A stretch of 64,000 bases of DNA, taken from Mobula birostris. Its lineage: Eukaryota. The stretch spans positions 81,797,921 to 81,861,920 of the forward strand of contig NC_092383.1 of assembly GCF_030028105.1 (NCBI RefSeq), written 5' to 3'. The notes under the pieces were generated by a model that saw nothing but the letters and a program-made list of their open reading frames with translations, ran no database searches and was not told the origin of the DNA. This document shows, one piece after another, positions 7,153-59,574 of the stretch. Positions within the stretch are counted from its first letter, which is position 1; each line of letters starts with the position of its first letter. Made by a program: the position numbers and the translations under genes.

Positions 7153-7189
7153 GGTATTAATAATAAATTATTAATACACAGAGGAAAAT

Positions 7190-7995
7190 ACTGAGGTAGT
7201 GTTCATGGGCTTATGTCCATTCAGAAATCTGATGGCAGAGAGAAGGAAGCTGTTCCTGGCACGAGTGTGTCTTCAGGCTCCTTTACCACCACCTTGATGG
7301 TAGCAAAGAAAAGAGGGCATATCTTGGGTGATGAATGTCTTTAGTGATGGATCCCACCTTTTTGGGGCATTGCCTTTTGAAGATGCCCTTGATTCTGGGG
7401 AACTGATTGCTCTTGATGGAGCTGGATGAATTTACACCTTTCTTCATCCTTTTCCATTCCTGTGCAGTGGTCCCTCCATTCCAGATGTGATGCAATCAGT
7501 ATGAATGCTCTCCACAGTGGATCGGTAGAAATTTGCATGTTCTTTGGGTGACATACCAAGTTTCCACAAGTTCCTAATGGAACATAATTGCCGTTGTGCC
7601 TTCTTTGTAATTGCATAAATATGTTAGGCCTAGGATAGACTCTTAGAGACGTTGACACCCAGGAACTTGAAACTGCTCAATCTTCATTTTCTGATTTCTC
7701 TCAGGACTGGTGTGTTCCCTCAACTTCCCCTTCCTGAAGTCCCCAATCAATCCCTTGATCTGTCAGACATTGAATGTAAGGTTGTTGTTGCGACACCCCT
7801 CAACTACCTGATCTGTCTCACTCCTGTATGCCATCTGAAATTGTTCCAATTGTTGTGTTGACAGCAAACTTGTTGATGGTGTTTGAACTGTGCCTAGCCA
7901 CACCATCATGGGTGTAGAGGAAGTAGAGCAGTGGGCTGCGCACACATCCTTGAGGTGCGCTAGTGTTGATTGTCAGTGAAGAGATGTTGCCTCCG
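7190..7995 (-). mobile_element. Rex/Babar-like LINE fragment (RT to 3' end)
   Basis: Minus-strand remnants APQGCVRSPLLYFLYTHD, WC.NNNLTFNV-like and LFSLLPS. Confidence 0.8.
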
Positions 7996-8369
7996 ATGTT
8001 GGAACACAATGTAATGTTCGATGATTTCAGTTTTTAATTGCTCCTATTCATTGTTTGACCATTTAATATTGTATGACCTGACTTGGCTGAGTACTTCCAG
8101 CATTGTTATCAATAGTGAAACCAGAACACTGCAGCAGAACTAGATGGAAGATGAGGTGCTGTTTCTCAAACATGATGGGCCTGATTCTAAAAGTACAGAT
8201 GTTTCTGCTTGCTCGTTTCCCTCCTCTCCCCCCCCCCCCCCCAGTGGAGGGCATGCTCAGCCTGACCTGCTGAGTGTGCCTTCCAGCTCTGCACTTTGCA
8301 ACTCTATTCTGTCTTCTGTGTTCTCATTCTAACTGCTCCCATTTGGTCATTGACCAGGAAGAAGACATC

Positions 8370-19624: not shown

Positions 19625-20004
19625 TCTGCAGGATGAGTTTGGGGAGCAGTAGCACCACCTAGTGTTAGAAAGCACAGAATGCATTGACAGTTAAAAGTTC
19701 TAGTGTGCTCAGAAAAGATAATGAACAGATTATGATATAAATAAGGGTTATAAATAGCAAGTTCTTAACTCTAACCCTACCTTCTCTCTTCTTCCCCCCC
19801 CCCCCCCTTACAAATACTGGGAACTGGGATCAACAGGATTTTCAGGGTGGTAGTTGGATTGTAAAATGGTATTCGGTCATTTATTGATACTATCTAAATA
19901 CCCAGAACTAGTAATGGTGTCACTTTATAAAAATCAATGGAGCAGGCAGTGTACCACTATAAGTGTATTCTGCTAATACTTGTTTAAAAATTCCTTTCAC
20001 TAAT

Positions 20005-20252
20005 TAAATGACCTTGCCTGGTGTCTCAATGTTGGGTGTGTCTGCATCAATGCCACCCCCTCCCCAGCACTCCTTCTCTGCTACTTGTGCAACACCCTTC
20101 CCGTTGTGCTCCACCCTCGCCATTCCCAACATCCTTTGTTCCCACCAGATTTACAAACTCAGTCTCGACTCCATGTTCACAAATACAGTACTGTGCAAAA
20201 GTCTTAGGTGCATATATATAGATAATATGCCTAAGATTTTTGCACAGTACTG
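20005..20252 (-). mobile_element. Partial compound Tc1-type element ending in a 67-bp mini-MITE (20186-20252)
   Basis: 23-bp TIRs CAGTACTGTGCAAAAGTCTTAGG with one mismatch, flanked by TA. 20005-20185 is homologous to the reverse complement of about 47866-48045. Confidence 0.88.
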
Positions 20253-20789
20253 TACTATATATCTTCCAATTTCAATCCTGAATACAAGTAACCAACCACA
20301 AACTTCGGTACTGAAGGTATTCAAACCATTAAAATTTCTCATTTCAGTTCTGAATAAGTGACCCCAGCCTGGCTATATGAAGTACTATTAATTAACTTCA
20401 ATGTTATTATGTAGCAGTTTGAGTTGAGGTGCATTAATTATATAGGAGAATAATCTTTGGTAGGAGTAGTTTAGTCACACTTAAACCAACTTAATAAGTT
20501 GGGCTCTTAATTTAGTATGTTAGCTTTAATTGATATTAAAATTTGCATTTAATTTGTAAAGTGGAACAGAATTCAGGGACTGGCTAGCCTATTCTTGATT
20601 CTGAGAGACTTCCAGTGATGGTCCTACAGCCTGAAATATTTTTACCCCATACTGATTTGATCCAAATTTGGCAATCTCACTAGATCCAGAGTTGCGTGTA
20701 TCCTGGTTATACTTCACTACATAAGACTTCAAGATTTCATTGCGATATATTGTGTATTTTTATCTTCAAGTACCTTGATTACTTTATTT

Positions 20790-29285: not shown

Positions 29286-29521
29286 ATGTGAATGAATTGA
29301 ACCCTTCCACTGGACATGTTGATATCCACGTCCACCAAGCCTGTCCTATAATTTATTTCCATTAACATGTAGTTCTGTTGCATTCTGTCATGTTTTTTGA
29401 GCTGCTTAAATGTCAATCTTTCAATTTTATAATCACACTAGTGTTTTAAAAAAAACAACTAAATTCATTGGATATGTCAGTAAATTCATTGCTCTAATTA
29501 CAGTGTCTTTTCAGAGGAAGC

Positions 29522-30945
29522 ATCAGAATCAGGTTTATCATCACCAGCATGTGTCGTGAAATTTGTTAACTTAGCAGCAGTAGTTCAATGCAATACATAA
29601 ATATAGAAGAAAAAAATAAATCAATTACAGTAGACATATATTGAATAGATTAAAAATTGTGCAAAACAGAAATAATACGATTTAAAAAAGTGAGGTAGTG
29701 TTCAAGGGTTCAATGTCCATTGAGGAATCGGATGGCAAAGGGGAAGAAGCTGTTCCTGAATCGCTGCATGTGTGCCTTCAGGCTTCTGTACCTCCTGCCT
29801 GATGGTAACAATGAGAAAAGGGCATGCCCTGGCTGCTGGTGGTCCTTAATAATGGATGCTGCCTTTGAGACAACGCTTCTTGAAGATGTCCTGGGTACTT
29901 TGTAAGCTAGTACCCAAGATGGAGCTGACTGTATTTACGACCCTTTACAGCTTCTTTTTGTCCTATGCAGTAGCCACCCCTCACCCCCCCCCATACCAGA
30001 CAGTGATGCAGCCTATCAGAATGCTCTCCACAGTACATCTATGGAAGTTTTAGGGTGTTTTTGTTGACATATCAAATCTCTTCAAACTCCTCATCTCTTG
30101 AAACTCCTAGCTGCTGTCTTGCCGCCTTTATAGCTGCATCAATATGTTGGGACCAGGTTAGGTTCTCAGAGATCTTGACATCCGGGAACTTGAAACTGTT
30201 CACTTTCTCCACTTCTGAATCCTCTAAAGATTGCTATGTGTTCCTTCGTCTTGCCCTTCCTGAAGTCCATAATCAGCCCTTTTGTCTTACTGACGTTGAG
30301 TGCAAGGTTGTTGCTGTGACACCACTCCACTAGTTGGTATATCTCACTCCTGTATGCTCTCACCTCCATCTGAGATTCTACCAACAATGGTTGTATCATC
30401 ACCAAATTTATAGATTGTGTTTGAGCTATGCTTAGCCACAGTCATGTGGAGTAAGCACACACCTCTGAAGTGCACCAGCGTTGATCATCAGCGAGGAGGA
30501 GATATTATCACCAATCTGCACAGATTGTGGGTTTCTGGTTAGGATGTTGGATCCAATTGCAGAGGGAGGTACAGAGGCCCAGGTTCTGTAAATTATCAGT
30601 CAGGATTGTGGGACTGATGGTGTTAAATGCTGAACTATAGTCAATGAACATGGTTGTTTGTATTGTCCAGGTGGTCAAAGGCTGTGTGAAGAGTCATTGA
30701 GATTGTGCCTGCTATTGACCTATTGTGGCGATTGGCAAATTGCAGTGGGTCCAGGTCCTTGCTGAGGTGGGAGTTCAGTGTAGTCATGACCAACCTCTCA
30801 AAGCATTTCATCACTGTAGATGTGTGTGTGCTACTGGGTGACGATTTTTAAGGCAGCTCACATTATTATTTTTAGGCACTGGTACAATTGTTGCCTCTCT
30901 GAAGCAAGTGGGAACTTCTGCCCATAGCAGTGAAAGTATCCTTGA
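29522..30945 (-). mobile_element. Rex/Babar-like LINE, 5'-truncated
   Basis: AYRSEIYQLVEWCHSNNLALNVSKTK; (CTGATT)n tail; the 3' part closely matches the reverse complement of 47416-47850. Confidence 0.88.
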
Positions 30946-47415: not shown

Positions 47416-47850
47416 TTTAGTCAGCTCCATCTTGCTTACTAGCCTACAAAGTACCCAGGAATCTTCAAGGAGTGGGGTCTCAGAAAGGCAGCATCTGTTA
47501 TTAAGGACCTCCAGCATCCAGGACCCAGGGCATGCCCTTTTCTCACTGTTACCATCAGGTAGGAGGTACAGAAGCCTGAAGGCACACACTCCGATTCAGG
47601 AACAGCTTCTTCCCCTCTGCCATCCGATTCCTAAATGGACATTGAACCTGTGAACACTACATCACTTTTTTAATACACAATTATTTCTGTTTTCTGCACG
47701 ATTTTTAATCTATTCAAAATAAGTATACTGTAATTAATTTACTTATTTGTTATTTTTTTCTTCTATATTATGTATTGCATTGAACTGCTGCTGCTAAGTT
47801 AACAAATTTCACAACACATGCTGGTGATAATAAACCTGATTCTGATTCTG
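47416..47850 (+). mobile_element. Rex/Babar-like LINE 3' end
   Basis: HALFSLLPSGRRYRSLK; tail aataaacctgattctgattctg. Confidence 0.88.
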
Positions 47851-47853
47851 GAA

Positions 47854-48328
47854 TGCACATTACTGTATTTGTCAATTTGCAGCGGAGAGCGAGTTTGTAT
47901 GTCTGGCAGGAGCAAAGGATGTTGGGAATGGTGAGCATGAAACGCTACAGGAAGGGTGTGGGACAGACCGCAGAAAAGGAATGCCGGGCGGAGGTGGTGT
48001 GTATGCAGATACCTAGCCCTGAGACACCAGGCAAGGTCATTTGATTCCAAACAATTATTTTTTGATCATTACAGAATGTGTGGTGGTTCCTGCTCCCTAC
48101 CCTGTCCCTTTCCTTTTCCCCAGTCATAATTCCCCTCTCCCTGCCCCCTTCCCACTCTCAGTTCACTGTAGAAACCCATTATCAGAATCAGGTTTATCAT
48201 CACTGATGTAAGTCATGAAATTTGTTTTTCTTTTGCGGCAGCTGTCAATGCAATACATAAAATTACACTACTGTGCAAAAGTACTGTACCCTAGTTATAT
48301 ATGTGCCTAAGACTTTTGCATGGTACTG
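47854..48328 (+). mobile_element. Compound Tc1-type element: TIR remnant, ~400 bp internal DNA, mini-MITE (48266-48328)
   Basis: tgcacattactgTA at the left end; TA-cactactgtgcaaaagt...cctaagacttttgcatggtactg-TA at the right end; internal part shared with 20005-20185. Confidence 0.8.
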
Positions 48329-48654
48329 TAAATCAATCTCATTTGCCTACACGATGTCCATATTCCAAAATTCTTTGATCAAGCTATCCAATTAATCCTA
48401 TTCCTCTTATTTTTCCACATCCCCGTAATTTATTTTCACTTCAAGTACTTACTCAATTCCAAAATTCATTAATAGTTCTGGTCATCATCCACGGATGCTG
48501 CCTAACCTGCTGTGTACTTTCAGCATATTTTCATTCATCCAATTCCTTTCTTTAAATAATGTTTGAATTTGCTTCTCTTTCAGATAGTGCCTGCCCAAGT
48601 AGAACAGTTCACATTATGAGATACCTTTTTTCCCTCTGGTTCTGTTTCCAATGT

Positions 48655-50369: not shown

Positions 50370-51018
50370 CTAATAGTGGGATCAGCAGTGGAAAGGGTGA
50401 GCAACTTTAAATTCCCGGGATGACAACGCCTCTGAAGATCTATCCTGGACCCAACATATAGATGCAATTAGGAAGAAAGAACATCAACGGATATATTTCA
50501 TTGGGAGTTTCTGGATATTTGGTATGTCACCAAAGCAAATTACTACAGATGTACTCTGCAGAGCATTCTAGTTGATTGCATAATTATCTGATATGGAGGG
50601 ACCGCGCAGGATCATTCACCACTGTAGAGGCTTGCAAACTCAGCCAATTCCATGATGGGTACCAGCCTTCCCAGCATTGAAGACATCTTCAAAAGGCGAG
50701 GACTTGAAAGTTAGCATCCATCATTGAGGATCTCCATTGGCCAGGACATTATTCCTCCTTATTACCAACAGAGAGGATGTGCAGGAGCCTAAAGACACAC
50801 TCAATGTTTTATGAACAGCTTCTACCCCTCCACCAGTATATTTCTGAATGGATAATGAACCAGCTCATGGACACTACCTCACTATTTTTGCTCTCCATTT
50901 GCACCACTTATTTAATTTATTTTCAAAATGTATTATTGTAATTTATAGTTTTTTTATGTATTGCAGTGTAGTGTTACTGCAAAATGACAAACTTCATATT
51001 AAACCTGATTCCGATTCT
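50370..51018 (+). mobile_element. Degenerate Rex/Babar-like LINE 3' part
   Basis: gtggaaagggtgagcaactttaaattcc...gaagatctatcctgg; tail taaacctgattccgattct. Confidence 0.78.
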
Positions 51019-59435: not shown

Positions 59436-59574
59436 CTTACTGTAATTCACATTTTTTTCCTGTTATTATGTAAAGCATTGTACCGCTGCCGCAAAGATGA
59501 CAAATTTCATGACATACTGCGGGCCGGTGATATTAAACCTGATTCTGATTCTGTCATACTAATGGTTATTTTGT

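Follow-up and report, generated by a model that had tools for sequence, protein, structure and literature searches.

Paris of Drosophila virilis is a natural composite of the Tc1 family, and the 80-bp MITE of Hsmar1 is known as MADE1. Most composite transposons are bacterial (PMC9977792). Among these, TIME-COMPs are Tn3-derived composites bounded by two complete non-autonomous miniature elements on the 244-bp scale; these may be oriented directly or inversely and move the intervening DNA, resistance genes included, with the transposase supplied in trans (PMC13367494). In eukaryotes, KolobokP elements of the Kolobok superfamily have terminal units with inverted repeats of their own, arranged as 450-660-bp direct repeats around an internal transposase, and they occur with often plentiful solos, footprints and unit-sharing multimers (PMC9587614). 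The Sleeping Beauty sandwich is an engineered pair of complete Tc1-family elements placed head to head, with mutated inner ends, whose outer ends move a cargo of many kilobases (PMC4229213). Pack-TIRs (PMC8277862) and grapevine Pack-MITEs (PMC2817404) are single TIR elements that carry host DNA acquired by gap filling or template switching, without inner ends or TA at the cargo junctions; they are mostly of single or low copy number, with some families amplified. The human 80-bp Hsmar1 MITE is a minimal two-TIR deletion derivative with a TA target, known as lone copies (PMC2642840), and Intruder elements are DD38E transposons of 1.5-1.7 kb with short TIRs (<100 bp), most reported copies of which are recent (PMC7731502). 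Searches of the accessible full-text literature, which takes in few subscription journals, turned up no animal composite of high copy number made from a minimal MITE of the Tc1 type.

Here we describe a locus that is very probably a truncated copy of such a high-copy non-autonomous composite, likely moved in trans by a DD38E Tc1-type element. The original prediction was that two neighbouring MITEs had mobilised the DNA between them as one unit, which was then amplified.

Structure of the Window Locus

The window, i.e., the whole stretch of 64,000 nucleotides of Mobula birostris DNA that was analysed, carries at 47854-48330 a left-truncated copy of a repeat family designated A, which aligns to family positions 55-546 (Table 1). 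The TIR remnant with TA originally noted at its left side (47854-47867) proved to be all that is left of the left MITE, namely the last 12 bp of its inner arm, followed by the TA, and the internal DNA, noted as about 400 bp with an inverted LINE tail, measures 396 bp (47868-48263), its tail piece being 77-80% identical to LINE-type tails at 47765-47846, 59466-59549, and 29522-29601. At the right side, the TA is in place, but the mini-MITE is not full, being 63 bp long with a damaged inner arm and 3 bp lost at the inner junction.

Table 1. Coordinates of the features of the composite and its surroundings in the window.
Feature	Position	Strand	Evidence or remark
Left MITE remnant, 12 bp	47854-47865	+	Aligns to family A positions 55-67, inner arm
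Inner-left TA	47866-47867	+	Sequence; TA also in the family majority sequence
Cargo A, non-LINE part (~312 bp in the family)	47868-48180	+	Genomic candidates, best others 79-82% identical
Cargo A, inverted LINE 3' tail piece	48181-48263	-	Ends at the TA occupied by the right MITE
Inner-right TA	48264-48265	+	Junction ~3 bp shorter than in the family
Right mini-MITE, 63 bp (family 67 bp)	48266-48328	-	Inverted relative to the left MITE; parent-left-end arm toward the cargo
Outer TA, position of the target-site duplication	48329-48330	+	Sequence
LINE-type retroelement 3' end	47419-47849	+	86% identical to window 29519-29930
Second copy in the window, cargo A cut short after its first ~185 bp	20002-20183	-	76.5% over 196 bp, E 4e-35
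TA + complete 67-bp left MITE (20186-20252) + TA of the second copy	20184-20254	-	TAs at 20184-20185 and 20253-20254

The 3' end of a LINE-type element stops 4 bp upstream of the remnant of the left MITE, the bulk of which this element probably deleted or pushed aside; the 5' part of the element extends into a stretch of N, where any further piece of the left MITE upstream would be hidden. Its assignment to LINEs is based on a tandem-repeat tail and a weak RVT_1 match of a related window copy (E 0.08, below the cut-off), and is otherwise our presumption. Decayed LINE-type copies with reverse-transcriptase-like frames are also present at 7185-8033, 29519-30599, and 50374-50888 of the window.

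An inverted repeat of the internal DNA had been noted at 20005-20185, adjoining a complete MITE. The complete 67-bp MITE was confirmed, but only about the first 185 bp of the cargo are present there, and a TIR scan allowing up to three mismatches detected no second MITE at this copy (20002-20254).

Abundance and Mobility of Family A

The majority sequence of family A, derived from 79 full-cargo matches without removal of duplicates, is a 546-bp unit consisting of a 67-bp hairpin MITE, TA, a 408-bp cargo, TA, and the MITE in inverted orientation, the two 67-bp ends being exact reverse complements. Conservation drops to background past the outer TA, and the flanks of family A copies are unrelated; the outer TA was present on the left in 33 and on the right in 31 of 44 copies with both outer ends recognisable. 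This is the structure that had been expected for many copies if the unit was mobile. Two findings would have spoken against it, namely a cargo usually occurring without MITEs and homology extending beyond them; neither was obtained, since only 2 of 108 full-cargo matches lacked the MITE on both sides and homology stops at the outer TA.

At least 3609 genomic candidates were found for the 313-bp non-LINE part of cargo A in the 4.0-Gb genome (G000), in agreement with the predicted amplification, and the window copy shows 79-82% identity with the best 39 other copies of cargo A. A 25-base TIR motif has 2890 exact occurrences in the genome, while only 9 of 308 arms of cargo-picked copies retain it exactly, which gives a rough estimate of 2x10^4 family A copies. 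A systematic sample of 20 stretches (190 kb of readable bases) contained no copy of A, of the sister composites B and C described below, of the MITE, or of its parent, which bounds family A below about 6x10^4 copies and implies that the density observed near other matches (5 A units in 429 kb) is inflated. The median K2P distance of A copies to the majority sequence is 0.112 (n = 109), indicating that the family is old.

Movement as a unit was assessed using empty paralogous sites. Among 44 complete A copies, 10 have an empty paralogue among the collected loci; a clean 2-bp TA overlap was observed for four of them (L051, 9 of 9 matches; L092, 1/1; L070, 30/44; and L097, 20/25), and the other six yielded scattered offsets. 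The unrelated flanks, together with the TA duplication at empty paralogous sites, show that family A moved as a unit, as the original prediction held for the DNA between the two MITEs.

Thirteen of the 40 best matches to the window cargo are clustered in a 2.3-Mb stretch (G000:C33:39.1-41.5 Mb), possibly a compositional effect. Two A copies (L030:1343-1925 and L002:1455-1953) carry a short inverted repeat of the first 26-35 bp of the cargo, lying beyond or replacing an end as if produced by fold-back repair.

The Parent Element and Derivation of the MITE

Two loci found with the TIR motif (L148 and L167) contain elements of 1.56-1.59 kb with the same 26-bp TIR. The majority sequence of this parent, built from 30 copies (K2P 0.116; 1232 genomic candidates), is 1598 bp long, and its 26-bp TIR is the same as the MITE arms. 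In one copy, an open frame shows a match to the catalytic domain of SB100X (Sleeping Beauty) with an E-value of 2.7e-26. The spacing between the second D and the E could be measured in 18 of 26 examined copies; it is 38 residues in nine of these 18 and 34 in none, the others carrying indels. A Pfam search of the parent frames returned nothing at E 0.01, with DDE_3 appearing weakly (E 0.08), and no intact transposase was found among the parent copies, which are decayed.

The inner arm of the MITE matches the left end of the parent for 31 bp and the outer arm its right end for 27-28 bp, so that the MITE consists of about 31 bp of the parent left end, a short AT-rich spacer, and about 27 bp of the parent right end. 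By this comparison, the MITE derives by deletion from the decayed DD38E-spaced Tc1-type element of 1598 bp. Like Tc1/mariner MITEs in general, it is short and non-coding, has TIRs, duplicates TA, and has its TIR in common with a transposase-coding element. A non-autonomous deletion family of about 405 bp (L149, L160, L173, L214, L215, L248, L256, L257, L267, and L270), comprising about 40 bp of the left and about 365 bp of the right part of the parent, looks like an intermediate step from the parent to the MITE.

Thirty genomic loci with Pfam DDE_3 matches were rejected as parent candidates, having ends of their own without this TIR. Most of those compared with themselves show long inverted repeats of another Tc1 family, which is abundant (L175-L204; 20,883 candidates), encodes DDE_3 frames of up to about 350 aa, and has ends that recall Sleeping Beauty. 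Other Tc1-like elements were found inside the TA-rich MITE spacer (L192:487-2343, L127:1385-1415, and L137); at L192, a Tc1 element with long inverted repeats splits one MITE of a B copy, so this Tc1 family must be the younger.

Sister Composites with Unrelated Cargos

The same MITE encloses three further, unrelated cargos. Cargo B measures 105 bp and cargo C 157 bp, and D is represented by one copy. Composite B is a 243-bp unit with 649 candidates and composite C a 295-bp unit, both built as in A, and the cargos of B and C are related neither to A, nor to each other, nor to the parent. Composite D (L219) is a single-copy 213-bp unit with a TA duplication in 5 of 8 empty sites. The empty-site test gave no clean TA result for B (2 of 14 copies testable) or C (3 of 10 testable).

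The MITE sequence and polarity are identical in A, B, and C, the arm from the parent left end pointing inward at 6 of 6 ends. Among individual matches, both ends have this arm on the cargo side in 72 of 108 for A, 18 of 27 for B, and 10 of 20 for C; one end is flipped in 2, 2, and 4 matches, respectively, and in most of the remainder one end is lost or cannot be read. The median K2P distances of B (0.064) and C (0.082) compare with 0.112 for A, the B and C samples being biased to best matches. Chimeras in which one MITE is common to two cargos were also found: A-MITE-B at L288:1043-1673, A-MITE-C at L348:1094-1709, and a tandem of A at L026:1191-1887. Two such MITE-sharing chimeras among about 49 B and C loci are far more than expected from chance adjacency.

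MITE-Free Sources of the Cargos

The original prediction called for a source of the internal DNA without MITEs. Such sources were obtained for B, for C, and for the right end of A, but not for the first 312 bp of cargo A, where each of the 24 matches was either a copy of the element or one interrupted by a later event, and no upstream sequence common to these 24 left-end matches was noticed. At the right end of A, MITE-free LINE-type 3' regions run through the TA of the junction in six loci (L069, L072, L077, L086, L089, and L405), of which five came from 30 loci collected with a pattern excluding the MITE end and the sixth was found separately. Cargo B occurs without MITEs at G000:C32:2029138-2029239, 95% identical to the family and with one TA at each junction, in flanks that are unrepeated as judged among the collected loci. 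Cargo C is an inner piece of a repeat of about 540 bp, with a majority TA at both junctions and no MITE in 10 of 10 inspected copies. Altogether, five of the six inner junctions of A, B, and C are single TAs in MITE-free host DNA, as expected for insertions made by a transposase; the left junction of A was not found.

The source locus of B (L381, G000:C32:2029138-2029300) has a splice-donor-like site after an exon-like stretch, preceding the left junction of the cargo. The donor repeat of C (L412-L421) has at least 39 other copies, 71-79% identical to L380, and L380, once considered a unique source of cargo C, is itself a copy of this repeat; the 983 genomic candidates for cargo C do not count the composite, for the cargo also sits in the repeat. 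A further candidate source of cargo A (L023, 93%) turned out to have a collapsed hairpin and was rejected. The source junctions rule out circular permutation of the cargo, i.e., capture of a circle at a single TA, for A, B, and C.

Lone MITEs and Excision-Type Footprints

The occurrence of the MITE outside composites was examined in 89 loci picked by motif alone, corresponding to the first 90 motif places on contig C1 with overlaps merged. Of these loci, 71 adjoin cargo A, 4 B, and 2 C; another 6 represent ends of the parent or its derivatives, and the last 6 were unassigned, three of the latter being A ends with later damage. No complete lone MITE was present among the 89. In a cargo-blind sample, every one of the best 29 whole-MITE matches belonged to an end of A or B. 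A second, enriched set consisted of 95 loci selected against A junctions, and 70 of these comprised 42 of A, 14 parent ends, 2 of C, 1 of B, 5 partial copies, composite D, and 5 complete lone MITEs. The lone insertions are 67-72 bp long, and two of them, both in repeats, show a TA duplication relative to empty sites (L258, 3 of 4; L273, 12 of 18). Lone MITEs with TA duplication thus exist but are rare.

Searching with the right junction and the pattern TA-NN-TA, we found four of 30 matches in which cargo A lacks its right MITE, and all four read TATGTA or TACATA at the junction. These sequences match the 2-bp excision footprint of Tc1, which suggests that single MITEs were sometimes excised from composites.

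Several other MITE arrangements were observed. At L226:1504-2143, a direct pair of MITEs, 570 bp apart, encloses unrepeated DNA and follows closely on an exon-like, cysteine-rich stretch reminiscent of an EGF domain. Some MITE ends (L146, L341, and L344) have the spacer in the opposite orientation to that of the family, probably through inversion between the identical 26-bp arms. At L249, the MITE spacer has grown into a GT-type microsatellite of about 800 bp.

Formation and Spread of the Composites

The 26-bp ends common to the MITE and the parent suggest that the parent transposase would have mobilised the composites in trans. In the scheme we favour, a MITE at one TA would have gained a partner at a TA 85-408 bp away, and the transposase would then have paired the two outermost ends. 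A composite of 240-550 bp may have outbred the lone MITE, as 67 bp of DNA would bend poorly for end pairing; this putative advantage is consistent with the resistance of DNA under 90 bp to bending (PMC2642840), although the same source reports that 80-120-bp mariner MITEs transpose in vitro and argues that size is not limiting, which weakens the argument. The inner ends remained intact, and their occasional use likely produced the footprints of lone-MITE excision.

For the first pair, local second insertion of a MITE is the likeliest origin, at about an even chance. The direct pair at L226 fits such insertions. However, the rarity of lone MITEs means that two independent insertions within 400 bp would require strong local hopping, and the uniform inward polarity at six of six ends, which would occur 1 time in 64 at random, is not predicted by local hopping alone; the two MITE arms are identical for 26 bp, so no end preference is evident.

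A birth in one step is a serious possibility, if one we lean against: once the DNA has replicated, the transposase would pair opposite ends of the two sister copies of a lone MITE, the left on one chromatid and the right on the other, and insertion at a nearby TA would invert the DNA between two inverted MITE copies, leaving the other chromatid MITE-free. By our derivation, this route yields inverted pairs only, as found in A, B, and C; the chance of three families all having the left end inward then rises from 1 in 64 to 1 in 8, and the need for a single MITE suits both the rarity of lone MITEs and the short cargos. Sister-chromatid or hybrid-element reactions have been described for P and Ac/Ds (PMC3744419); no paper showing such a reaction for Tc1-type elements was found in the accessible literature. 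No founder copy was seen, the source of B has no CA/TG footprint, and the pair at L226 is in direct orientation. An extension of this route, that the 67-bp MITE is too short to pair its own ends and works mainly via sister-chromatid pairing, creating a new, more mobile family at each event, is offered tentatively. If this extension is correct, it would constitute a general factory for non-autonomous families from arbitrary host DNA in animals, each event inverting the neighbouring 0.1-0.4 kb between two MITE copies.

It is rather unlikely that the cargo was exchanged between the inner ends of one ancestral composite, with B, C, and D descending from it and inheriting its polarity. The agreement of A, B, and C in MITE sequence and polarity, the chimeras at L288, L348, and L026, and the lower divergence of B and C, subject to the best-match bias of their samples, would fit exchange. 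Yet every new cargo is bounded by two distinct natural TA sites with no circular permutation of the source, a swap mediated by repair would not choose TA at every junction, and the chimeras are explicable by recombination between the identical 26-bp arms.

We consider it very improbable that the composite is a single element with long palindromic TIRs and filler DNA from gap repair, of the Pack-TIR/Pack-MITE type, in which the 67-bp unit was never an element. It is true that MITE units almost always belong to an end of A, B, or C (77 of 89 motif-picked loci and all 29 of the best whole-MITE matches), but the lone 67-72-bp insertions with TA duplication and the single TA at five of the six inner junctions in MITE-free DNA contradict this reading, as do the excision-type footprints and the plain 26-bp TIRs of the parent. 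Segmental duplication or chance clustering of repeats, which has in its favour nothing beyond the two copies in one window, is refuted by thousands of dispersed copies, unconserved flanks, and empty paralogous sites, and can practically be dismissed. Hairpin ends of the parvovirus type were rejected, as the ends match a Tc1-type parent and duplicate TA.

Significance and Comparison with Known Systems

The predicted likeness to a bacterial composite transposon was borne out for the defining features that were tested, apart from formation by two separate insertions, for which the uniform polarity would equally suit a one-step event. Two complete, near-identical elements flank DNA unrelated to the parent; the flanking element inserts alone (five lone copies); the whole unit moves with a target duplication, cleanly for 4 of 10 testable A copies and for D; and the cargo has an element-free source in which the inner junctions are insertion sites. 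As a eukaryotic counterpart of bacterial composites, the system is natural, repeated, and strongly amplified, and the parent, the intermediate deletion family, the lone MITE, four cargos, their sources, and the footprints are all legible in one genome. It offers a concrete route to new non-autonomous families with unrelated interiors, by which about 400 bp of host DNA was spread thousands of times; the hairpin MITE is likely a reusable tool that turns ordinary DNA into new jumping elements. The lower size limit of Tc1 end pairing and sister-chromatid transposition by Tc1-type elements become testable. Entries of repeat libraries with long palindromic TIRs may be hidden composites, and family A itself may already be catalogued in Repbase or Dfam as a plain non-autonomous element. 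The composite families are ancient, and neither a host function nor gene capture was observed for them.

Of the closest known systems, TIME-COMPs are alike in principle, while here the flanking element is a 67-bp Tc1-type MITE in a 4-Gb animal genome, the cargo is non-coding, copies number in the thousands, and the consensus is always inverted (PMC13367494). KolobokP resembles the present families in being eukaryotic, with self-contained terminal units, solos, footprints, and unit-sharing multimers, but here the units are Tc1-type, 67 bp long, and inverted, the transposase lies outside, the cargo is captured host DNA, and solos are rare (PMC9587614); membership in KolobokP, defined by long direct repeats and an internal transposase with a His-Me nuclease, was rejected in view of the 67-bp inverted ends and the 408-bp cargo unrelated to the parent. 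The Sleeping Beauty sandwich has the same head-to-head build, in contrast to which the arrangement here is natural, with intact inner ends and cargos of 85-408 bp (PMC4229213). Pack-TIRs (PMC8277862) and Pack-MITEs (PMC2817404) likewise carry host DNA and in some families amplify, but the junctions here, each a full inner TIR plus TA, exclude membership in these groups. The parent resembles Intruder in length, DD38E spacing, and short TIR class but is old (K2P about 0.12), unlike most reported Intruder copies (PMC7731502). The MITE itself is most similar in kind to the 80-bp Hsmar1 MITE (PMC2642840), with the difference that the latter is known as lone copies, whereas the unit described here survives mainly as the paired ends of composites.
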